From Patescibacteria group bacterium (GTDB taxonomy: Bacteria > Patescibacteriota > Minisyncoccia > UBA6257 > HR35), in NCBI GenBank assembly GCA_023480925.1, contig JAMCWY010000019.1:1-32000 (forward strand): a stretch of DNA of 32,000 nucleotides, read 5' to 3'. The notes below the pieces were generated by a model. The model was given only the letters and a program-made list of their open reading frames with translations, did not search any database and was not told the DNA's origin. Shown here piece after piece: positions 1,866 to 27,406 of this stretch (positions are counted from its first letter, which is position 1; each line of letters begins with the position of its first letter). Both the position numbers and the translations under genes were made by a program.

Positions 1866-4559
1866 ATGAAAAAAACCGCGGTCAAAAAAGAATTGACGTC
1901 AGTTTCCAAAAACAAAACTCTTCGCTTGAACCGATACTTTAGCCAAGAAAATATTCAGCCCTACGATCAAGTTGAATGGGTTAAAACCGACGCCGTCATT
2001 GCCGGATCTCAGGGGCCAAGTTTTGAACAAAAAAATGTCGAGTTCCCGAATTTTTATTCTCAAAACGCGATTAATATTATCAGTTCAAAATACTTTCGAT
2101 TTCAGGGCGAGAAAAAAGAAAAATCTTTAAAAAATATTATCGACCGAGTCGTTAAAATTTTCCGGGCCTGGGCTGAAGATCAAAATTATTTTCGAACTAA
2201 AACCGAGGCGGAAATTTTCGAAAACGAGTTGACCTTTCTTATCCTTGACCAACGGGCTTGGTTTAATTCGCCTATTTGGTTTAATGTCGGCGTCAAAGAA
2301 AAACCGCAATGTTCGGCTTGTTTTATTCTTTCAGTCGAAGACTCGATGGAATCGATTTTAAATTGGATCAAAACCGAAGGATTAATTTTTAAAAACGGCT
2401 CCGGCTCCGGCATCAATCTTTCACCCCTGCGGGGCAAAGGTGAAACCTTAAATAGCGGTGGATCTTCTTCCGGCCCGATTTCATTTATGACCGCGGCCGA
2501 CGCTGTAGCTGGATCGATCAAATCCGGCGGTTCGACTCGCCGAGCGGCCAAGATGCTTATTCTCAACGCCGACCATCCGGATATTTTGGAATTTATCCAA
2601 GTCAAAACAAAAGAAGAAGACAAGATCCGCGCCTTGATCGAAGCCGGTTATGACTTAACCGACATGAATAATCCTCTTTGGCAAAATATTTTTTTTCAAA
2701 ACGGCAACAATTCCATTCGAATTCCCGACGAGTTAATGACCGCAGCCTTAGCCGATGAAGATTGGCCGGTTTATAATATTCACGATCGCGCCGTCGCTAA
2801 AAACTATAAGGCCAGGTTTATTCTTGAAGAAATAGCCAAGGCGGCTTGGTCTTGCGGCGATCCCGGCGTCCAATTCGACACGACAATCCAAAAGTGGCAC
2901 ACCTGTAAAAATTCAGACAAAATAAATGCGACTAATCCCTGCGCCGAGTATATTTTTCTTGACAACACCAGTTGTAATCTCAGCTCGATCAATCTCTTAA
3001 AATACTTGCGCGAAGACGACAGTTTTGATATCGAAGGTTTTAAACAAACCGCGCGAATAATGTTCATGGCCCAAGATCTTTTAATCGACAAAGCCGGTTA
3101 TCCCACGAGTCAAATTGAAGAAGAAACGAGAAAATATCGAACAATTGGCCTTGGTTACGCCAATCTTGGCGCTCTCTTAATGGCGCTTGGCCTGCCTTAT
3201 GATTCAGACGAAGGCCGCGCCTGGGCGGCTTCTTTAACCGCCCTTCTCACCGGTCAGGCTTACAAAACCTCGGCTCAAATGGCTGCTCAACTTGGTCCAT
3301 TCGAACAATTTGAGCAAAACCGCGAACCAATGTTCAAGATAATTGAAGCTCATCGAGAAAAAATCAATGAAATTGACGGTCGGTTAGCGCCAAAAGATAT
3401 TTTGGCCGCGGCCAGAAAAATTTGGAATGAAACGCTTGAACTTGGACAAAGATTTGGTTTTCGCAACGCTCAAGCAACCGTCTTGGCGCCGACGGGAACG
3501 ATTGGTTTAGCTATGGATTGCGACACAACCGGAGTTGAACCGGATTTTGCTTTGGTCAAGATGAAACAGTTGGTCGGCGGCGGTTATATGACCTTCGTCA
3601 ATAAAACCGTCAAGACCGGGTTAAAACGACTCGGCTATAACGAAGAAGAAATTAAAATCATCGTTGACCATCTTGAAAAAAATCGCAATATTGAAACAGC
3701 GCCGATTCTGAAATCGAAAGATTTGGCTGTTTTCGACTGCGCGGTTAAGCCAACTGGCGGCCAACGTTCAATCCATTGGCGCGGCCACGTCAAAATGGTC
3801 GCCGCGGTTCAACCATTTATCTCGGGCGGTATCTCGAAAACATTCAATATGCCGAATGAGGCCGGCGTTGACGAAATTTACAACGCCTATATCGAAGCCT
3901 GGAAACTCGGAATCAAGTGCTTCGCCGTCTACCGCGACGGTTCAAAAGCGACCCAGGCGCTTTACAGTGGCGATAAAAACAAAAAAAGCGGTGAAGAAAA
4001 AAAAATTCAAATCCAAAGAAAAAAATTGCCCGACCGACGCGCTTCTGAGACCCACAAATTCACCGTTGCCGGCCACGAAGGCTTTTTGACTTACAGTTTT
4101 TACGAAGACGGCAATCTCGGCGAGATCTTCATCCGAATGTCAAAACAAGGCAGTACCCTTTCCGGTCTTTTAGACGCTTTCTCGATCTCGGTCTCAATCG
4201 CCCTCCAATACGGCGTGCCTTTAAAAACTTTGGCTCAAAAATTTATTCACATGCGGTTTGAACCAATGGGCGTAACCAATAACGACGAGATTAGAATCGC
4301 CAGTTCAATTATTGATTACATCTTTAAGTATTTAAGTTTCAGATTTTTCACCAGCGAAGAATTATTTGAACTCGGTCTTCAATTAAAGCCGGAAAATTAT
4401 GCCGTCTTGGAAAGTCAACCAAAACTTTTTGAACAAAATAAACGTAACTCGACCGAATCGCCCGGACCGCCCTGCAAATTTTGCGGCGGTCTGACGATGA
4501 GAACCGGCAGCTGCTACACTTGCGTCGAGTGCGGTGAAAGCAGCGGCGGGTGCGGTTAA
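1866..4559 (+). CDS. nrdJ: Class II (adenosylcobalamin-dependent) ribonucleotide reductase
   Basis: 897-aa ORF starting at ATG. It has the RNR active-site loop NPCAEYIFLDNTSCNLSSINL, VLAPTGTIG and AVYRDGSK segments, and the Cys-rich C-terminal tail CKFCGG...CYTCVECG...GGCG typical of NrdJ. Confidence 0.9.
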   Translation: MKKTAVKKELTSVSKNKTLRLNRYFSQENIQPYDQVEWVKTDAVIAGSQGPSFEQKNVEFPNFYSQNAINIISSKYFRFQGEKKEKSLKNIIDRVVKIFRAWAEDQNYFRTKTEAEIFENELTFLILDQRAWFNSPIWFNVGVKEKPQCSACFILSVEDSMESILNWIKTEGLIFKNGSGSGINLSPLRGKGETLNSGGSSSGPISFMTAADAVAGSIKSGGSTRRAAKMLILNADHPDILEFIQVKTKEEDKIRALIEAGYDLTDMNNPLWQNIFFQNGNNSIRIPDELMTAALADEDWPVYNIHDRAVAKNYKARFILEEIAKAAWSCGDPGVQFDTTIQKWHTCKNSDKINATNPCAEYIFLDNTSCNLSSINLLKYLREDDSFDIEGFKQTARIMFMAQDLLIDKAGYPTSQIEEETRKYRTIGLGYANLGALLMALGLPYDSDEGRAWAASLTALLTGQAYKTSAQMAAQLGPFEQFEQNREPMFKIIEAHREKINEIDGRLAPKDILAAARKIWNETLELGQRFGFRNAQATVLAPTGTIGLAMDCDTTGVEPDFALVKMKQLVGGGYMTFVNKTVKTGLKRLGYNEEEIKIIVDHLEKNRNIETAPILKSKDLAVFDCAVKPTGGQRSIHWRGHVKMVAAVQPFISGGISKTFNMPNEAGVDEIYNAYIEAWKLGIKCFAVYRDGSKATQALYSGDKNKKSGEEKKIQIQRKKLPDRRASETHKFTVAGHEGFLTYSFYEDGNLGEIFIRMSKQGSTLSGLLDAFSISVSIALQYGVPLKTLAQKFIHMRFEPMGVTNNDEIRIASSIIDYIFKYLSFRFFTSEELFELGLQLKPENYAVLESQPKLFEQNKRNSTESPGPPCKFCGGLTMRTGSCYTCVECGESSGGCG

Positions 4560-5218: not shown

Positions 5219-6568
5219 TTATTGGCCGCCGTGAATCGAAATTTGTCTGGGCGAAGCATAATCACTAGTAACAACGCAATCGCTACCAGGTTGAATTGAC
5301 AACTTTAACTCCTGGTAAGTATTATTAAAAAGACCCAAGCTCATATACGCGGTTGAAAATGGTTGAGTCTGGCCTCCAGTTGTCGGGATATTATTTAAGT
5401 AGAAACTAACTGGTTGGTTAAAAGTATTAATATCCGACTGGGTAATGCTATTAATATTTTGGTTGTTTAAGCCGCTGACATAAATGCCGCTGATTAAACC
5501 TTGAACCGCGCAGTTAGCCGGAGCGCTGTTTGGATTATCAGCGAGATAGTTAATTTGAACATAAAATGGCGGATCGTAAAGATATGAACCATTAAGATAC
5601 ACAAAACCAAGATTTGTGATCCAATTGAAAAAATTATTATTATTCAAACCGCTAAGACTGTATGACTGCGCGCCATAAATTGTTATTCCGCCATAAAGAA
5701 TATTAACTTGGGTTTGCTGAACCGCGATTGGCGCTGACGGTAGGGTGTAAGAATAGGTTGATTCCGGCACAGTGCAAGCGCTGACATTGTTGCTTGAAAA
5801 AACAACACGAAGATTATCGCCGGGTTGGGCATTCAAACTTGAAAGCAAGAGCAGGAATCCGCCGGGCGGACTGATTATGGTCCCAGTAACCGGCAACTGC
5901 GTTCCCTGAGTGACATTATAAACGCTGGCGCTAAGACTACAATCACCGGCGTTAGCGGGAATGCTGCCGTTAAGGTCGGCAAAACCAGTCAGACCGCTTC
6001 TCTGGTTGTTATAGCCTAGATCGGTGATAACAACTTGAGCTGGTTGCGCTTGAGGCGAACCGGCACCACCACCAGTGCCGCTAACCGGCGGCGGAGTCGT
6101 GCCACTTAATGTCAACTCCAGCCCCTGAACAATACTAAAAGCCAAAACCGCGACGATAATACCAGTTAAACCATAATAAAGTCTTTTGTGCACGTCCGGA
6201 GCGTTGCCGGGCTTGGTGATATAAATTATTCCGGCCCAGATTAAAAATATAACCGCCAAAAATAAAGCTAAAGTGTAAACCACTCTCAAAGTTTTATCTA
6301 AAAGCCACAAAAGACACTGACCGAGACCGCCGGCGCTGCCAGTGCAAGCGGACTGAGTCGGCAAAAAACCAAGGTAATTCGAACCGGTCTTAATACCGTA
6401 ATGAAATGGATTTTGGTATGAAGAAGAAGCTGCCGCTTGGACAAAACTGATTTTCAAAAAACCGAACAAAAGAAAAACAAAAATAACACCGGCCAAAATA
6501 AATTTTAAATCTTTTTTAAATTCTTTCAGACGACTTGGTTTGATTTTGACCCGATTTAAAATTTTCAT
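5219..6568 (-). CDS. Pilin-hairpin paralogue P449: signal/anchor, Cys loop, two-TM hairpin, Gly/Pro linker, large Asn/Ser/Thr-rich C-terminal ectodomain
   Basis: ATG at 6568. It has a hydrophobic N-terminus (FILAGVIFVFLLFGFL) and a C-x9-C loop before TM1. The hairpin is LAVIFLIWAGIIYITKPGNAPDVHKRLYYGLTGIIVAVLAFSIV and the linker is SGTTPPPVSGTGGGAGSPQAQPAQ. About 280 aa follow, carrying two further Cys pairs (C-x54-C and C-x77-C). Confidence 0.7.
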   Translation of the reverse strand: MKILNRVKIKPSRLKEFKKDLKFILAGVIFVFLLFGFLKISFVQAAASSSYQNPFHYGIKTGSNYLGFLPTQSACTGSAGGLGQCLLWLLDKTLRVVYTLALFLAVIFLIWAGIIYITKPGNAPDVHKRLYYGLTGIIVAVLAFSIVQGLELTLSGTTPPPVSGTGGGAGSPQAQPAQVVITDLGYNNQRSGLTGFADLNGSIPANAGDCSLSASVYNVTQGTQLPVTGTIISPPGGFLLLLSSLNAQPGDNLRVVFSSNNVSACTVPESTYSYTLPSAPIAVQQTQVNILYGGITIYGAQSYSLSGLNNNNFFNWITNLGFVYLNGSYLYDPPFYVQINYLADNPNSAPANCAVQGLISGIYVSGLNNQNINSITQSDINTFNQPVSFYLNNIPTTGGQTQPFSTAYMSLGLFNNTYQELKLSIQPGSDCVVTSDYASPRQISIHGGQ

Positions 6569-7511: not shown

Positions 7512-7919
7512 CTAACCGCCAACACCTGAAACGTTGACGATATTTTGAAGTGCTGCAACCAAAGCGTAAGAAACTAAAGCGACAACCAGACCGATCGCGC
7601 CATAAATCAACATTGTTTTCGCTTTTTGTTGGGAGGCTGGATCGCCGGCCTTGGTGATAAAAATAATACCAGCCCAAATAAAGAAAATCACGGCCAAACC
7701 GCCGGCAACCCAAATTAAAACCTTAAAAACAATAGCAAAAATTGCGGTTATACACGTATTTAAGGTACTGCCAACAGGACAAATTTGTTGCGTAGTTGCC
7801 TGCTGAGGACTTTGAATTGGCAAGTTAATTTGCCCGTGAACCGGCAAGGCGACTATAACCGGCGTTAAAACAGCGAAGAGAGCGGCTACTAAAATTAAGC
7901 TAGAATAAAATTTCTTCAT
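7512..7919 (-). CDS. Pilin-hairpin paralogue P135 (VirB2/TrbC-like small membrane protein)
   Basis: ATG at 7919. It has a signal peptide (LILVAALFAVLTPVIVALPVHG) and a C-x8-C loop. The hairpin is LAVIFFIWAGIIFITKAGDPASQQKAKTMLIYGAIGLVVALVSYALV. Confidence 0.75.
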   Translation of the reverse strand: MKKFYSSLILVAALFAVLTPVIVALPVHGQINLPIQSPQQATTQQICPVGSTLNTCITAIFAIVFKVLIWVAGGLAVIFFIWAGIIFITKAGDPASQQKAKTMLIYGAIGLVVALVSYALVAALQNIVNVSGVGG

Positions 7920-8129
7920 TTTTTCTTAATTAGCTAACCTTAACTTTTTTAATTCGACCCAAAACTGTCCGTTAATTAAACTGGGCAGTAATTAAATTAA
8001 TAATTATTCTATTTTAAACCATATCGATCAAATCGCAAGAGCGCTGGGGATAACCAATAACAAAGATATGCTCATAGATCAGAAAAATCACTAATAGATA
8101 AATAATTCAAAGAATTTACCGCTTTTTAC

Positions 8130-9569
8130 TCAACCCAAAATACTAGTTAAAAGAGCAACAATAGCCGAGGCGATCAAAAGAAGGAAGTAACCGACAACGG
8201 CGTATTTTATCCAACCGTGGCCTTTTCTAACATACTCTTCGCTCAAAGGTGTTAAGAGATAAACCAAACCGCCAATCGTGATTAAAAGGATCAGAAGAGG
8301 AACGGACAAACTGTTAAGAAAATGTTCGATTCTATAAAAAATAGATTGGGGCGTAACGCTGGCGTAACCGCTCGGGTTGGCTAAATTATTAAAAATCCCG
8401 CCGGGAAAAACAGTGATCGGAATTGATGATGTCGTCACGCTGACGCTGCCGCCGGAAAGCGCGTATGAAGAAATATTATTCATCGAGGTTTGGAGCTGAT
8501 TAGAAGCGTTGGTTACGTTCGTATTGGCGGCTTGTAAATTAGAATTAGCCTGGTCGCAGGCTGATAAGATTTCGCTATCAGTTGAATTCAAACTAGCCAA
8601 CTTATTTAAACAATTATCATAATTTCTAATCGCGGCCCTTAAACTATCAACCGATGTTATAGAAGCAGAAGTTTGATTAGTAGAAATTAATTCCTCTACG
8701 CCGCTGTTCATTTTTTCCAAATAAGCGTAAAGCGTATCGTAACAATAACCCGGCGAGGTAGATCCGCTTGGGCAAACGGCAACTTCAACGCCAGGAATAT
8801 TACTAGTGTTGTACACGACAGCGACACCAAAAGAAAGAAGATCTTTATAAAAACTATTATATAAAGTGCTAATCAGCTGATTCTCAAGGTTGTTTTGATT
8901 CACTCCCGCGCTGAGATTATTTCTTAAATTAAGCAACGCTTGTTTAAGTCGCGGGTTGCCTCTAACTCTGGTTTGAGCGTTTTGAATAATCGAATTCCAA
9001 CTATCAACTTCTAATAGCTGTACATTTGGAAAAGGGCTTGGAGTAGTGACACTAGTGATACCCAAAATTTTATTAGTCACGTCGCGGAACATCCTCAAGA
9101 CATCGATCAAGTAAAGTTGATAGGCGTTATCCGCTATTAAAGTATTCTCATTACTAGTTATCTTCTGCGCTATAATAAAATCACTGTCTTCTTTTCTCAC
9201 ACGATACGGGTCAAGCCCGTTTAAAAAATTATTAGCGAACTCAGCGACATAACACATCCGATAATAAACTGAATTTAAAGAACAATTATGATTGGTATAA
9301 TTCAGCGCCGGCGATGGCGTCCAACCGGTCATTAAATCACTCCGGTCGGTCGATGGAAAATAACCAGATGAATTTGGAAAATTCCTTTCAATAATATTGG
9401 TCAAATTAATAATATCATTATTTAGAGCCGTGTTTATATCTTGCTTGTAACCAGTCTCGATTTGTTGTTCAACGTCAGATCCTGATTGGGCCAAACTAAA
9501 ATGAGAACTTGGCCAAAACAACGAAAGCGCGGTACCAATCAGAACTAAAACCACAAATTTCTTTTTCAT
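8130..9569 (-). CDS. Pilin-hairpin paralogue P479: signal peptide, large N-terminal ectodomain, C-terminal two-TM hairpin
   Basis: ATG at 9569 overlaps the stop of the upstream gene (ATGA). The signal peptide is MKKKFVVLVLIGTALSLFWPSSHFSLAQ. The roughly 400-aa Asn/Ser-rich ectodomain has three Cys pairs (C-x9-C, C-x9-C, C-x17-C). The C-terminal hairpin is VPLLILLITIGGLVYLLTPLSEEYVRKGHGWIKYAVVGYFLLLIASAIVALL. Confidence 0.7.
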   Translation of the reverse strand: MKKKFVVLVLIGTALSLFWPSSHFSLAQSGSDVEQQIETGYKQDINTALNNDIINLTNIIERNFPNSSGYFPSTDRSDLMTGWTPSPALNYTNHNCSLNSVYYRMCYVAEFANNFLNGLDPYRVRKEDSDFIIAQKITSNENTLIADNAYQLYLIDVLRMFRDVTNKILGITSVTTPSPFPNVQLLEVDSWNSIIQNAQTRVRGNPRLKQALLNLRNNLSAGVNQNNLENQLISTLYNSFYKDLLSFGVAVVYNTSNIPGVEVAVCPSGSTSPGYCYDTLYAYLEKMNSGVEELISTNQTSASITSVDSLRAAIRNYDNCLNKLASLNSTDSEILSACDQANSNLQAANTNVTNASNQLQTSMNNISSYALSGGSVSVTTSSIPITVFPGGIFNNLANPSGYASVTPQSIFYRIEHFLNSLSVPLLILLITIGGLVYLLTPLSEEYVRKGHGWIKYAVVGYFLLLIASAIVALLTSILG

Positions 9570-11706: not shown

Positions 11707-12255
11707 TTAATTTTCAACCTGACCGGCAAAAAGATGATAACCGTCGAAATTTTCAGCCGCGATTAAACTAAACCCGGCCTGAGCCAGCCAAGCTTTAATC
11801 TGGTCGGCGGAAACCACATTATAGTCATTAGTCTGGCTGAACGGCTTAAGAAAAGGATGAACCTGGTCTGGTTCGACCAAAACAACATAGCCTTTCCGGC
11901 GCAAAACCCTCTTCGCCTCGTCGATAATTCGTTTATCCGCCTCAGCGTGGTTTTGAAATAAAACCTGACTGATAAAAACAAGATCAACGCTCTCGCTTAA
12001 TAAATTCGTCCGCTCCAGATTAACAAGAGCGCAATTAATATTATTTAAATTTAAAACCTCGGCCAACTCTTTTGTCTCTTTAACCGCCTCGGCCGAAAAA
12101 TCCAAAGCAAAAACCTGGCCGTCCGGACCGACCGTCTGAGCTAAAAGAGCGCTGAAATAACCGCCACCGCAACCAAAATCAGCGACCCGAAAACCTTTAA
12201 CGAGAATCAAATGTTTGGTTAAAAAATCGATTACCCTATTGGGTTTTAAGAACAT
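11707..12255 (-). CDS. Class I SAM-dependent methyltransferase
   Basis: ATG at 12255. It has the motif I sequence [11 protein letters not shown], an acidic post-I residue (VFALDFS), and DLVFISQVL / GYVVLVE motifs. It overlaps the gyrA 3' end by 20 nt. Confidence 0.75.
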
Positions 12256-21990: not shown

Positions 21991-23553
21991 TTAGTTTTGA
22001 ATGTTAACCTTGATTTTGCTCGCGTCCAAAGGAAACGATTTCTGCCAAAATGGCCAAATTTCAATATCGGCTTTTTCAACCTGGTCCAAGGATTTTAGAT
22101 AATCGCGGATGTCGGTTAAAGACTTCCCCCTTAACTCCTGAACGATTTTTTGACTATCAAGAATTTCCTTGGTCGTAACCGTTCCTGTCGCCTCGATCGC
22201 CTCATTCTTAAAGTCCGGATCAAGTTGCTGAAGTTTGACCTTATCAATACTGATATTGGTAATCTCGACATTATTTTTATTGGCTAGATTTTTTTTGGCG
22301 AAAATATCTTTGAGAAGTGAAATAAGCAATTCCTTTTTAACGCCAATCGCTTTCAGCTCGCCCGTGCCGCTTACCATAATTTTGGCCGCGGTCTGGCCAA
22401 CCTGGTTGGAAACGTCGGTAACTTGAACGTTAATTTGGCCAATTTCTTCCGGAAAAACATAGTCCGGATACTTCAAGGCAAGATCCTTGACCAAAAGATT
22501 GTTTAACTCGTTCTCCAACTTGACCCGACCATTATTAATATCGTCGATTAAAACCGTGTGGGAAACGTTGCCACCACCACCACCGCTAATCGTCCCTTTC
22601 GATTGAGCCGTAATTAACTTCTGCCAACTCGTTCCGGCTAAGCCCGGGATAGTGAAATTCGTCGTGGTCGAAAGATTATAGTCGCCACTTGAACCGTCGG
22701 CGGTGACTTGAACATCAACACTGCCTTGACCAGAAACATAAACCTGACTCAAAGAACGATAAATCTTACCGGCGGGTGATTGAAAACGGGTGCCGGGAAC
22801 CAAAGTCAAACTGTCGGCCGAAGAATCGGTTAAAACGATTACGCCCTGAGCGCGATTGTTCACGCCAAGACTTGGTCCGGTTGTCGTTTGAAAAACGCTA
22901 TCGTTTTTAGTGATGTCAACGAAAGTCCCGGGCAAGGTGTGCGTGTCGATATTTTCCGAAGTGGCGTTACGGTCAAGAATAATAATCTCGTCAAACTTCT
23001 GGGTATCTTCCTTGGGCGTGATATCAACCTTGGCGCTGGTGCTGAAACCGCCCACGACAAATAAACCCAAACCGGTCAGGGCGATCGCGGCGGCGGTGAC
23101 AAGAAAGATCTTTTTCAGTTTTTTTGTTTTTTTCGTTCGGCCGCGATCAAGAAAAATATCTTCGCCTTTCGACCGATGACGCTCGGCCTTGTGTTCGGCC
23201 GGATGATGAACCGGATTAAAATAATGAAATGGCTTCGGTTTAATCTTGGCCGGCGGCTTGATGTCTGTCACCAACTTCGCTCCTTCCGCCATCGCCTCGT
23301 ACTCTTCCATAAATAAATCAAATCCGGCTTCTTTGACCAATTTGATAATCTCTTCGTCTTCCGTGCTTAAATAAATTTTTTTCTTCAAACGTTCGGTTTC
23401 TTTTTTAAGCAAGTCAAGATTGATTGGATGGAGGAAAACTTTTGTTTTGTCCGGGACAACCAAAATTAACTCTTTACTCTCGGAGTCACGAATCAACTCA
23501 ATCACATCGCCCAACTCCTCTGTCCCTTTTAAATAAAAATAATCTTTTTCCAT
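21991..23553 (-). CDS. Hypothetical single-pass membrane protein with about 85-aa cytoplasmic N-domain and about 340-aa ectodomain
   Basis: The start is placed at ATG 23553; the TTG at 23556 is the track start. It has a basic linker (HRSKGEDIFLDRGRTKKTKKLKK) and a TM helix (IFLVTAAAIALTGLGLFVVGGF). The ectodomain segment LVPGTRFQSPAGKIYRSLSQVYVSGQGSVDVQVTADGSSGDYNL loosely resembles baseplate-J-like domains; this is recognition by eye only. Confidence 0.5.
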   Translation of the reverse strand: MEKDYFYLKGTEELGDVIELIRDSESKELILVVPDKTKVFLHPINLDLLKKETERLKKKIYLSTEDEEIIKLVKEAGFDLFMEEYEAMAEGAKLVTDIKPPAKIKPKPFHYFNPVHHPAEHKAERHRSKGEDIFLDRGRTKKTKKLKKIFLVTAAAIALTGLGLFVVGGFSTSAKVDITPKEDTQKFDEIIILDRNATSENIDTHTLPGTFVDITKNDSVFQTTTGPSLGVNNRAQGVIVLTDSSADSLTLVPGTRFQSPAGKIYRSLSQVYVSGQGSVDVQVTADGSSGDYNLSTTTNFTIPGLAGTSWQKLITAQSKGTISGGGGGNVSHTVLIDDINNGRVKLENELNNLLVKDLALKYPDYVFPEEIGQINVQVTDVSNQVGQTAAKIMVSGTGELKAIGVKKELLISLLKDIFAKKNLANKNNVEITNISIDKVKLQQLDPDFKNEAIEATGTVTTKEILDSQKIVQELRGKSLTDIRDYLKSLDQVEKADIEIWPFWQKSFPLDASKIKVNIQN

Positions 23554-23570
23554 CAACAGTTTTTGGTTGA

Positions 23571-24845
23571 TTAAACCGCTTTCGAAATTTTTTGATGCTC
23601 TTTGAATCGTTCGTTAAAAATATCTTCGACTTTTGGCGAAATTTCCATTTTTTTTATCTGCGCCAGTTCTTTTGCCAACTCCAAAGGCAAACCGTAAGTG
23701 GCGTAAAGTTGAAAAAGTTTTCCAGCCAGTTCTTCGGCCGTCTCGACGCCGGTGATGTTTCGTTCAAACCGCCTTAGAGCCTGACCCAATGTTTGTTCGA
23801 ACGTTCCCAGTTCCGCCTTAATTACTTTTAATATTTTATCATAATTCTGCAACTCCGGATAAATTTGGCCAAACTTTTCTCTAACCGATTTAATCACCAG
23901 CTCGAGTTGAACCAACTCAATCTGATTCAAGCGCAGACGCAAAGCTAAACGACGCAAGATCCGACGCAAAACATAACCGCGCTCAAGATTGCTTGGCTGG
24001 ACACCGGCGCCGGCCAAAAAAACCGCGGCCCGAACATGATCAAGAATAATTCGAAGATCAGATTGGACTAAATCAGACTTGATTTCCAAAAGCCGCGTTC
24101 GGGTTGGCTCGAATAAATCCGTCTCGAATATCGTTTCCGTTTTTTGAATCACCTTCATCAATCGTTCAAAACCCATACCCGTGTCAATACCAACAAGATC
24201 AAGTTTCTTTAATTTTCCGTCTGAATCTTGATAATACTGGTTAAAAACTAAATTCCAAACCTCAAGATCGTTAATGTAAATTTCCGTAGTCGGGCCACAC
24301 GGTCCTTCTTCACCCGTCGGTCCCCAAAAATTATCCTCCCGGCCGCGCTTTTTAATTTTATCCCCGTAGCCAATCTCGTCCCAAACTCGTGCGCTGGCTT
24401 CGTCAAAAGGAATGTCGGCTTCGCCCTTAAAAACCGTAACGGAATCAAAATTTAAACCCAATTCTTTTTCCAAAAATTCCCTCGCCCAAATAATCGCCGA
24501 TCTTTTAAAATAACCGGCCGGGCCGAAATCAGCCGGATCATCCGAACCAACCGGGCCGAAAGAAAAATTACCAAGCATTTCAAAAAAAGTCAGGTGAGTC
24601 GTGTCGCCAATTTCATTAATATCGGTCGTCCGAAAACATTTTTGGATTGAAGCAGTTCTCTGGCCGCCAAAATCAACTCGGGCGTCTTTTTCGGCCGTGA
24701 AATATTTTTTAAACTGCTGCATTCCGGCCGTGGTCAACAAGACCGACTTGTCACCAAACGGTATCAACGACGATGACTGAATAATTTTATGGCCGCGGTC
24801 GGAAAAAAAATTAAAAAATAATTTTCTGACTTCTTCCGAACTCAT
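23571..24845 (-). CDS. alaS: Alanine--tRNA ligase, aminoacylation/tRNA-recognition half only (424 aa)
   Basis: It has SSSLIPFGDKSVLLTTAGMQQFKKYF, QKCFRTTDINEIGDTTHLTFFEMLGNFSFG and GIDTGMGFERL. It ends (LYATYGLPLELAKELA...FKEHQKISKAV) where full-length AlaRS continues into the editing domain. The next gene downstream is unrelated. Confidence 0.85.
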   Translation of the reverse strand: MSSEEVRKLFFNFFSDRGHKIIQSSSLIPFGDKSVLLTTAGMQQFKKYFTAEKDARVDFGGQRTASIQKCFRTTDINEIGDTTHLTFFEMLGNFSFGPVGSDDPADFGPAGYFKRSAIIWAREFLEKELGLNFDSVTVFKGEADIPFDEASARVWDEIGYGDKIKKRGREDNFWGPTGEEGPCGPTTEIYINDLEVWNLVFNQYYQDSDGKLKKLDLVGIDTGMGFERLMKVIQKTETIFETDLFEPTRTRLLEIKSDLVQSDLRIILDHVRAAVFLAGAGVQPSNLERGYVLRRILRRLALRLRLNQIELVQLELVIKSVREKFGQIYPELQNYDKILKVIKAELGTFEQTLGQALRRFERNITGVETAEELAGKLFQLYATYGLPLELAKELAQIKKMEISPKVEDIFNERFKEHQKISKAV

Positions 24846-26386: not shown

Positions 26387-27406
26387 CTAAAAACCGAGGC
26401 TGATTTTTTCGCGCTCGACCATTTCCTTTTCAATTCGATAAAGACCGAGCTTGCCTAAAATATAAAAACAAAACCAAGCGATAAAACTCAGAACCCACCC
26501 ATAAAACCACAAAATTGATTGGACAATAACGACGATTAGCAGCGCCAAAATAATCTTGACGGCGTAAAATTTTAGCTGGTCGCGGCTCGAGTTTAACCAA
26601 AACAAACTGAGATATTTGTAAACCGCTTGGCTTAAAGTATCGTTGGGGTTGATGTTGGTTTTGAGTTTGTTATTTAAATTACTTAGAGTTGGACTAACGG
26701 CCGCCGCCTCAATCGTTCCGGTTGAAACCTGAATCGGCTGGCTGGTTGAGCCGACCGGCAGACCAAGATTGCTTAAATTAACCACACTACTCTCCGACAT
26801 AATGTTACTTGAAATAATCTCGCTAACCTTGGTTTCGGGCGTAATTTGAACCTTAAGACTTTGGCTAACTTGACTAAAAATCGGCGTGGTTAAGTTGGCC
26901 AAACGATTAAAATTCTGGGCCGAAATAAAATCTTGACCCGAACTAGTAAAAACCACAATAATCAAAATTAAAATTAAAAACCAGTTTACGACCGTCCACT
27001 TCGCCCGAGTCAAACCAAGCCAGTTAATTTTTAACTTCGCCTGTTCAACGCTCATCATCCGCCAAAAGGCGTTCAGGCTGACGATAATAAAAATCAAAAA
27101 AGACCAGCTGGCCAAATTAACGTTCCCGGTCAAACGATAAAACCAAACTGACAAAAACACGGCCACGATCACTTGGGCCAAAAAAGAAATAATAAAATCG
27201 CCGCCAAGCTCAAGGAGAATATCAAAAAGCAACCAGATGAGCGCACTTAAAATAAAAACATTAAATAAATTAAAGTTGAGCTGAAGAAAAACGATCAAGC
27301 CGAGATAGGCCGTACTTGAACCAAAAATGATCGTGGCTAAAAATATCAAGATTGTTTTTAAACCAACCCTCTCAATCTTTGCCACTTCTTCGCTTTTAAT
27401 CACCAT
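26387..27406 (-). CDS. Hypothetical polytopic membrane protein inserted between dnaK and dnaJ
   Basis: 339 aa, ATG at 27406. It has about five N-terminal TM helices, a Ser/Thr/Asn-rich loop of about 110 aa, and two C-terminal TM helices. No family recognised. Confidence 0.6.
   Translation of the reverse strand: MVIKSEEVAKIERVGLKTILIFLATIIFGSSTAYLGLIVFLQLNFNLFNVFILSALIWLLFDILLELGGDFIISFLAQVIVAVFLSVWFYRLTGNVNLASWSFLIFIIVSLNAFWRMMSVEQAKLKINWLGLTRAKWTVVNWFLILILIIVVFTSSGQDFISAQNFNRLANLTTPIFSQVSQSLKVQITPETKVSEIISSNIMSESSVVNLSNLGLPVGSTSQPIQVSTGTIEAAAVSPTLSNLNNKLKTNINPNDTLSQAVYKYLSLFWLNSSRDQLKFYAVKIILALLIVVIVQSILWFYGWVLSFIAWFCFYILGKLGLYRIEKEMVEREKISLGF

Follow-up and report, generated by a model that had tools for sequence, protein, structure and literature searches.

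Patescibacteria account for a large part of bacterial diversity and apparently live attached to host cells. Tandem arrays of two to 11 sequence-divergent pilin genes of the Pfam family PF18895 have been described from them (Wang et al., 2023, PMC10633639; Quinonero-Coronel et al., 2025, PMC12102498), and small pilin arrays are essential for epibiotic growth of the cultured Saccharibacterium S. epibionticum. In this species, the one that is genetically tractable, the type IV secretion system (T4SS) is essential as well. The stretch considered here (hereafter the window) comprises the first 32,000 nucleotides of contig JAMCWY010000019.1 (assembly GCA_023480925.1) from the genome of an ultra-small Patescibacteria (candidate phyla radiation, CPR) bacterium. 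It contains two adjacent operons of VirB2-like (PF18895) pilins, in which eight consecutive hairpin genes on one strand form a tandem array of divergent pilin paralogues. Three of the products, P479, P449 and P214, join the pilin hairpin to a large additional domain. The evidence assembled below points to modular pilins that serve as minor or tip subunits and expose variable binding domains, a reading to which we give an even chance; such modular pilins would be the first in the VirB2 superfamily.

Three long proteins built on a pilin hairpin

The three long open reading frames (ORFs), all on the minus strand, lie where a preliminary description made from the sequence alone had placed them, and their hydropathy layouts agree with it. 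Long ORFs of this kind could arise from fused neighbors, frameshift read-through or misassembly, and errors do exist in the NCBI assembly of the same genome, where gyrA is split into three ORFs (L002 2025-4360), probably by assembly frameshifts; in the window and in Logan contigs gyrA is intact (779 amino acids, aa). No support was found, however, for an artefact among the long pilins. P479 is identical on four independently assembled contigs, and the sister strain L044 (GCA_021788915.1) contains the whole array with every ORF intact, despite 5-30 synonymous differences per gene. Between the window and this strain, per-gene dS is about 0.04-0.11 and dN/dS 0.07-0.66 (0.31 for P479 and 0.30 for P449). 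Homologues of the long pilins with the same architecture also occur in many metagenomes and genomes. Artefactual fusion is thereby refuted, with a residual probability close to nil.

P479 begins with a signal peptide (hydrophobic segment at residues 5-24) that is likely cleaved between SLA and QSG; this position was chosen by visual inspection, and ..AQ likewise closes the family consensus. An ectodomain of about 320 aa follows, with six Cys in the pairs 96/106, 266/276 and 320/338. The protein ends in a module in which an extended pre-hairpin motif, GGSVSVTTSSIPITVFPGGIF...TPQSIF, precedes two transmembrane (TM) segments (about 414-444, and 452-479) connected by the charged loop EEYVRKGHGWIK, with three Lys/Arg. 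The ectodomain had been called Asn/Ser-rich; Ser (11.5%) and Asn (10.4%) are indeed abundant, but Leu is the commonest residue of P479 (11.9%).

P449 and P214 are arranged in the opposite sense, with the hairpin first and the large domain at the C-terminus. P449 consists of a signal peptide (1-45; hydropathy marks a signal peptide or anchor at 17-49), the hairpin (86-156; TM segments 89-121 and 129-156, with three Lys/Arg in the loop), a Gly/Pro linker (157-179) and two modules (approximately 177-275 and 286-447) containing the Cys pairs 210/265 and 353/431. A further pair, 75/85, lies before the hairpin and had gone unlisted. P214 lacks a signal peptide and comprises the hairpin (6-72; TM segments at about 10-35 and 41-76, motif SLPVIIQSF), a Gly/Pro linker (73-106) and a small C-terminal domain with the Cys pair 139/201. 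The linkers of the two proteins are 24-34 aa long. The Cys spacings, both linkers and the opposite placement of the large domains are exactly as first described. Homology between the C-terminal domain of P214 and the first module of P449, which had also been envisaged, found no support: hhalign returned the expected register, yet with an E value of 0.15.

The proposal of one paralogous hairpin common to all three proteins is borne out. In an all-against-all comparison, all eight array hairpins were mutually related, falling into a group B (P135, P136, P145, P449 and P214; E values of 1e-9 to 1e-22) and a group A (P126, P146 and P479; about 1e-5, as for P479-P126 at 1e-5), with cross-links between the groups (e.g., P126-P214 at 3e-6). 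The P449 hairpin matched that of P145 at 4e-19 and those of P135, P136 and P145 at 1e-14 to 1e-19, and the P214 hairpin matched P145 at 2e-11 and P449 at 4e-9 (BLASTP 6e-8).

Pfam assignments were judged against gathering scores of 26.6 bits for PF18895 (T4SS_pilin) and 27.9 bits for PF04956 (TrbC/VirB2). Residues 410-473 of P479 exceed the former (31.5 bits), as do P135 and P136, whereas P449 (22.9 bits for PF18895), P214 (14.2 bits), P126 and P145 give only sub-threshold matches to PF18895 or PF04956. P479 is named 'pilin' in the NCBI annotation of a Patescibacteria metagenome-assembled genome (GCA_023381135.1). PADLOC and NCBIfam returned nothing relevant except a weak match of P136 to NF045849, a 'pilin-like conjugal transfer protein' of a Mycoplasma integrative and conjugative element. 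P146 has no Pfam match at all and P145 stays below the gathering score, yet both are pilin paralogues by direct comparison (P146-P126 at 4e-6, P145-P449 at 4e-19); surveys based on hidden Markov models (HMMs) therefore undercount pilins in such arrays. By their hairpins, P479, P449 and P214 are members of PF18895, but they are not canonical pilins. Canonical members are about 100-190 aa long and essentially hairpin, whereas these proteins measure 479, 449 and 214 aa and carry ectodomains of 140-400 aa. P479 and P449 share with canonical pilins the signal peptide, two TM segments and short charged loop; P214 shares the hairpin only.

Other modular architectures occur in the same pilin family. 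Some relatives carry two or three tandem hairpins per polypeptide; a 780-aa relative has three hairpins, the last two separated by a Cys-rich domain of some 480 aa, and a 510-aa relative has 34 Cys ahead of two hairpins (examples are proteins P0054, P0062, P0071, P0089, P0057 and P0058, and loci L021, L030 and L035-L037). The hairpin thus behaves as a mobile building block.

The large domains had been placed outside the cytoplasm, and three lines of evidence agree. P479 and P449 have signal peptides. The inter-helix loop contains one to three Lys/Arg in seven of the eight hairpins, with mostly zero or one in the flanks; the 12-aa loop window of P214 has none, with one Lys just upstream. Finally, the number of Cys in the mature ectodomain is even in 32 of 34 P479-family members, and the hairpins have no Cys. 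In both odd-numbered members a Cys lies at position 25-26, where the signal peptide is assumed to end, and random parity would give at least 32 even counts with a calculated probability of about 3e-8. Signal peptides, basic loop and Cys parity together place both termini, and hence the large domains, outside the cytoplasm, and all three domains are predicted to be, almost certainly, extracytoplasmic. In solved conjugative pili, likewise, the two ends of the subunit are exposed on the outer surface, with the loop facing the lumen (bioRxiv 10.64898/2025.12.18.695078).

Variable ectodomains on a conserved module

An exhaustive search of 1.8 billion representatives with P479 gave 91 matches, 33 of which are proteins of approximately 310-540 aa with a signal peptide, a long ectodomain and the hairpin at the extreme C-terminus. 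Word-indexed searches, with P479 alone or with a 31-sequence family alignment, had returned only P479 and one relative. The P479 family, of at least 33 protein clusters, is sizeable; the preliminary description had left the wider occurrence of the architecture for a survey to establish. A profile built from the 33 relatives matches P479 at an E value of 2e-59, and only the last 130 or so residues align confidently. The conserved region reads ..G.V.V.T..PI.V.PgGiF....TP..If..i..FL and is followed by the hairpin.

The division between the two parts of the protein is equally plain in the rates of change. Pairwise across 15 cassettes of a clade in which a comEC gene follows the long pilin, median identity is 68% for RNase J, 64% for the methyltransferase encoded in the cassette, 61% for the metallo-beta-lactamase part of comEC, 57% for the C-terminal module of the long pilin (130 aa), 52% for ComEC, 47-49% for the small pilins, 46% for a maltose-binding protein (MBP)-like protein and 19% for the long-pilin ectodomain. 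Between the window and L044, the comparison of ectodomain with hairpin that the preliminary description had called for gives P479 a dN/dS of 0.50 over residues 25-349 against 0.04 over residues 350-479, and 26 of the 29 amino-acid changes fall in the ectodomain.

The 34 ectodomains fall by BLAST into six small clusters and six singletons, P479 being one of the latter, and profile-profile comparison joins just two pairs of clusters. For this clustering 135 C-terminal residues were removed, since leaving about 55 aa of the conserved pre-hairpin motif in place falsely joins all sequences by BLAST. Comparison of the P479 ectodomain with those of its relatives by phmmer, BLAST and hhalign yielded nothing significant except at the signal-peptide end and for one weak link to a cluster (E value 2.7e-4). 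To judge from these sequences, the P479-family ectodomain is hypervariable and sits on a conserved, presumptive assembly module.

The P449 family comprises eight homologues, 30-40% identical, with an identical order of parts. Cys210, Cys265, Cys353 and Cys431 are invariant across the eight; one homologue has a third ectodomain module, and in several an additional helical insertion of some 110 aa precedes the hairpin. Median identity is 70% in the hairpin and 33% and 28% in the two modules, and the contrast between strains is small (dN/dS of 0.34 versus 0.25).

The AlphaFold2 (AF2) monomer model of P479, built from 31 sequences, has a predicted local distance difference test (pLDDT) score of 58.7. 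It is confident over most of residues 300-479, where a helical hairpin holding Cys320 and Cys338 leads through an extended segment to the two TM helices; within the C-terminal module pLDDT is mostly 65-89, with a dip to 50-56 at residues 371-390. In the AF2 model of P449, a disordered linker connects the hairpin to two beta-sandwich modules. Structural searches had been proposed as a check on the ectodomains, and with Foldseek they gave generic matches for P449: this low-confidence model matches tandem immunoglobulin (Ig)/fibronectin type III (FN3)-like domains, best of all macroglobulin (MG) domains (4zjg, 1.8e-5), yet with TM-scores of 0.1-0.3. Further matches were to the S-layer proteins SbsC (2ra1) and Sap, the Vibrio matrix protein RbmA and FN3 pairs of cytokine receptors. 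We take the modelled modules as generic surface beta-sandwiches and no more. Matches of P479 to Pfam BAR and MG280 and to a PHROG 'minor tail protein' were dismissed as sub-threshold and confined to a helical, low-complexity region.

Cassette context and the reading of the long pilins

Two points escaped the preliminary description: the array combines two types of operon and has conserved partner genes, and the pilin cassette of one clade has comEC immediately downstream. The type A operon runs methyltransferase, MBP-like P435, P126, P146, P479, and the type B operon P135, P136, P145, P449, P214. A hairpin HMM and reference profiles were used to annotate 36 related genomic and metagenomic loci. 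Wherever a locus reaches far enough upstream, the type A cassette has the order methyltransferase, MBP-like protein, one or two small pilins (two in most, one in a few) and, last, the long pilin. Four different neighborhoods contain the cassette core, made up of the methyltransferase, the MBP-like protein and the pilins: between RNase J and a split comEC (19 loci, one clade); before hsp20-hrcA-grpE-dnaK; between gyrA and metS, with double-hairpin pilins in place of the long pilin; and, in the window, with gyrA on one side and the type B array on the other. Homologues of P449 lie in separate arrays that consist of three small pilins, the P449 homologue and two or three short hairpin proteins without a signal peptide (L041-L043). 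In L041 and L042, the protein encoded at the end of the type B array shares the motif SLP[VL]II.SF with P214 and belongs to the same family, whose Cys-containing C-terminal domain is present in L041 (265 aa) and missing in L042 (90 aa). The two operon types, separate in other genomes, are thus neighbors in the window.

P435 has a single N-terminal TM segment. It has homologues in L005-L037; homologues match SBP_bac_8, and the family profile matches sugar-binding proteins and MalE in the PDB; from these matches it is assigned a membrane-anchored, MBP-like (family 1, sugar-type) solute-binding fold. In all cassettes the gene lies between the methyltransferase and the first pilin, with no ABC permease or ATPase gene nearby, and the methyltransferase is immediately upstream in every related locus that reaches that far. 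The methyltransferase also matches 'mad2' in PADLOC (2.6e-20), probably as a generic methyltransferase-fold match.

From this context and from the topology, a mechanism may be proposed in which P479, P449 and P214 act as modular minor or tip pilins. Sec-dependent insertion would leave both termini outside, the basic loop in the cytoplasm and the domains facing outward, and this step is well supported. Through the conserved hairpin, which together with the pre-hairpin motif would form the docking module of the P479 family, the long proteins may join the same assembly as the small pilins encoded with them, presumably a short conduit or a pilus of the T4SS type whose genes lie elsewhere in the genome. 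Their stoichiometry would be low, whether they form a terminal (tip) layer or decorate the assembly sparsely, because a domain of 30-45 kDa on every subunit would not fit the helical lattice of a VirB2-type filament. The displayed variable domains could then mediate recognition of, or attachment to, the host cell, the role of VirB5 or surface adhesins in other T4SSs. Diversifying pressure from the host would account for an ectodomain that is hypervariable while the assembly module is conserved. A minor or tip role is further suggested by the single long pilin per cassette, always last and with frames that overlap or abut, and by its hairpin module being more conserved than those of the small pilins.

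The same observations can be read with the hairpin as a membrane anchor only, on surface proteins that never polymerise and in which the Gly/Pro linkers serve as wall-spanning stalks. The 24-34-aa linkers of P449 and P214 do resemble wall-spanning spacers, a bulky domain per subunit would fit the VirB2 lattice poorly, no T4SS machinery is encoded nearby, and the P449 domains resemble S-layer and matrix beta-sandwiches. A mere anchor, however, should not be the best-conserved part of a protein, whereas the C-terminal 130 residues of the P479 family, which include a non-membrane motif, retain 57% identity, evolve at a dN/dS of 0.04 and surpass the neighboring small pilins in conservation. Moreover, the long proteins hold fixed positions in pilin operons, with frames overlapping or abutting those of the small pilins. 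We regard a pure anchor as unlikely, though a serious contender.

VirB2-family propilins are processed at their termini, as in the long leader of TraA and the processing of TrbC by TraF. The N-terminal part of P479 might accordingly be a pro-domain or cargo that is cleaved at the pre-hairpin motif, either maturing a pilin of normal size or releasing a secreted variable protein, and the strongly conserved motif PI.V.PgGiF...TP..If indeed lies exactly between the variable domain and the hairpin. Yet a hypervariable, disulfide-bonded leader of about 320 aa would be costly in a tiny genome, the cassette has no conserved protease gene, and the C-terminal fusions of P449 and P214 would be left unexplained. 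We consider such cleavage very unlikely.

The comEC-linked cassettes suggest yet another function. In 19 loci a split comEC (a Competence PF03772 ORF and a separate metallo-beta-lactamase ORF) lies directly downstream of the long pilin (comEC-linked loci: L005-L019, L023-L025, L031 and L039; e.g., L009 10594-12640), and in five loci where the junction was read directly the two genes overlap by 1-14 nt or are separated by a few nucleotides. To judge from adjacency alone, the pilin cassette and comEC are probably co-transcribed in this clade. The type A cassette could thus be a DNA-uptake (competence) apparatus in which the pilins and the MBP-like protein work with ComEC, and T4SS loci of another Patescibacteria class adjoin comF, recG and radA (PMC12102498). 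However, the linkage is confined to one clade, whose RNase J sequences are about 68% identical, and is absent from the window and two other cassette contexts; compact, syntenic Patescibacteria genomes make adjacency weak evidence; a hypervariable ectodomain is unexpected for a DNA receptor; and in S. epibionticum comEC is dispensable for growth while the small T4SS pilins are essential. We consider a dedicated competence function very unlikely. Some of these accounts are compatible with one another: a tip pilin, for instance, could have DNA uptake as a further task.

Several points weigh against modular minor or tip pilins. We infer pilus incorporation, polymerisation and adhesion from architecture, topology and evolutionary rate. 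The sequence link to bona fide VirB2 is weak: the PF04956 matches all fall below the cut-off (P126 5e-4, P214 9e-4, P479 0.068 and P449 0.15), and a hairpin profile searched against PDB sequences retrieved no solved VirB2 or TraA. No T4SS ATPase or channel gene, and no gene for VirB4, VirB6 or a coupling protein, occurs in the window, and none of the latter three within 7-10 kb of the 30-odd related loci. The ectodomain of the P479 model is helical with a pLDDT below 50 for most of residues 22-300; searched with Foldseek against the PDB, this model, in which the ectodomain is of low confidence, gave no match with an E value below 1 and did not match a solved VirB2-type pilin. Neither Pfam or NCBIfam nor fold comparison of that low-confidence model linked the P479 ectodomain to VirB5 or an adhesin. 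The P449 model, built from nine sequences, is also of low confidence (pLDDT 59.5). The topology of P214 rests on homology because this protein lacks a signal peptide and carries just a single Lys close to its loop. Finally, the essential array of S. epibionticum contains small pilins only, so long pilins are not universally required.

Comparison with known systems places the design. The window array resembles other VirB2-like arrays of Patescibacteria in Pfam family, phylum and tandem organization, and its eight genes lie within the known range of two to 11. The S. epibionticum array (SEML1_0014-0019), however, encodes proteins of about 125-185 aa, whereas three window members carry ectodomains of 140-400 aa. 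The window array also differs in not lying beside virB4, in common with about 40% of Patescibacteria pilin genes, and in its partners, a methyltransferase and an MBP-like protein. No VirB5 was found in surveys of Patescibacteria T4SSs, one of which treated VirB2 as a small protein and found no adhesins (PMC12102498). The VirB5/TraC tip proteins of Gram-negative T4SSs are alike in proposed role: a single, largely helical, surface-exposed protein at the tip nucleates assembly and contacts the target (PMC12857230). These are, however, separate soluble proteins rather than hairpin fusions, and no similarity in sequence or fold was detected. The modular type 4 pilins PilB and PilC of Streptococcus sanguinis likewise combine a pilin module that enters the filament with a bulky adhesion domain and are minor subunits encoded with the major pilin (PMC8179133, PMC9934059). 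Type 4 pilins nevertheless form an unrelated superfamily, characterized by an N-terminal helix and processing by prepilin peptidase, and neither feature occurs in the window proteins.

The chaperone-usher adhesins FimH and PapG consist of a pilin domain and a receptor-binding domain and are present in single copy at the tip. Unlike the window proteins, they have an unrelated fold and assembly pathway and are restricted to diderm bacteria. The VirB2/VirB5 paralogue arrays of Bartonella Trw and Anaplasma are also tandem sets of variable pilins, thought to broaden or vary host-surface binding; there, however, variation resides in small pilins and separate VirB5 copies, without ectodomain fusions. 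Helicobacter pylori ComB with ComEC and the archaeal Ced/Ted systems tie VirB2-like proteins to DNA uptake, as the abutting of a window-type cassette and comEC in one clade might suggest, but they encode VirB4 and VirB6 with the pilin, whereas neither is seen here and the window lacks the comEC adjacency. A preprint on the Gram-positive pilin PrgF extends VirB2-like pilins to Gram-positive plasmids and makes no mention of fusions (bioRxiv 10.64898/2025.12.18.695078). The statement that such fusions are undescribed in the VirB2 family held up, with no paper found in open-access full text or bioRxiv. The design appears to have been known previously only from type 4 pili (PilB/PilC) and chaperone-usher pili, and its occurrence in the VirB2 superfamily would be new in the literature searched.

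The hairpin-ectodomain fusions provide concrete candidates for the determinants of host range and host recognition: a whole family has kept them, each cassette encodes one, and their ectodomain evolves about ten times faster than the hairpin. Further testable links come from the MBP-like protein and the methyltransferase and, within one clade, from comEC. A more far-reaching proposal, which we think rather unlikely as a whole, is that the modular pilins determine host specificity through swappable receptor-binding domains on a T4SS-type pilus, supplying the missing adhesin or VirB5 function, and that the cassette is an uptake or contact apparatus coupling recognition of the host surface (glycans) to the import of DNA or nutrients.

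Layout of the window

Nine consecutive minus-strand genes, P435 through P214, run from 11692 to 4556. Upstream, their neighbors are a small methyltransferase dependent on S-adenosylmethionine (SAM) and gyrA, and downstream a convergent ribonucleotide reductase gene. The remaining genes of the window are housekeeping genes, including ftsH, trmD, dnaK, grpE, hrcA and dnaJ.

Features of the pilin region, with positions in the window
Feature	Position	Strand	Description
Class I SAM-dependent methyltransferase	11707-12255	-	Pfam Methyltransf_31/11/25
P435	10385-11692	-	ORF; predicted membrane-anchored MBP-like protein
P126	10008-10388	-	ORF; small pilin, type A cassette
P146	9566-10006	-	ORF; small pilin, type A cassette
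P479	8130-9569	-	ORF; long 'type A' modular pilin
P479 signal peptide, aa 1-27	9489-9569	-	hydrophobic segment aa 5-24
P479 variable ectodomain, aa 28-349	8523-9488	-	mostly alpha-helical in the model; three Cys pairs
P479 conserved C-terminal module, aa 350-479	8133-8522	-	pre-hairpin motif and two-TM pilin hairpin
P135	7512-7919	-	ORF; small pilin, type B; PF18895 above gathering score
P136	7056-7466	-	ORF; small pilin, type B; probably 127 aa from internal ATG
P145	6588-7025	-	ORF; small pilin, type B; related to P449 at 4e-19
P449	5219-6568	-	ORF; 'type B' modular pilin
P449 C-terminal ectodomain, aa 180-449	5222-6031	-	two modelled beta-sandwich modules, one conserved Cys pair each
P214	4556-5200	-	ORF; hairpin without signal peptide, plus C-terminal domain

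The reading frames of the type A operon overlap or abut, which suggests translational coupling: the P435 stop overlaps the P126 start by 4 nt, and the P146 stop overlaps the P479 start. A gap of 210 nt between P479 and P135 divides the two operon types. It contains promoter-like hexamers (8003-8038, minus strand), which are weak consensus matches no commoner than in shuffled sequence. A terminator-like stem-loop (7515-7541, minus strand) overlaps the 3' end of P135; this too is a weak consensus match, of a kind whose count is not clearly above that in shuffled sequence. Such a stem-loop could make P135, the first type B gene, the most abundant pilin. At the other end of the array, the P214 stop and the 3' end of the ribonucleotide reductase gene that converges on it (1866-4559, plus strand) share 4 nt, leaving no room for a terminator between them. 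Some start codons are ambiguous: gene callers on other assemblies start P136 at the internal ATG rather than TTG, and P146 may have 139 or 146 aa and P435 429 or 435 aa.

Elsewhere in the window, two sizeable proteins have no Pfam match, one of 521 aa with a single TM segment and one a polytopic membrane protein of 339 aa beside dnaK, and a catalytic fragment of alanyl-tRNA synthetase (424 aa) is encoded as an ORF of its own (21991-23556, 26387-27406 and 23571-24845, respectively; all minus strand). In a related locus, gyrA (L030 380-4036) carries a LAGLIDADG intein.

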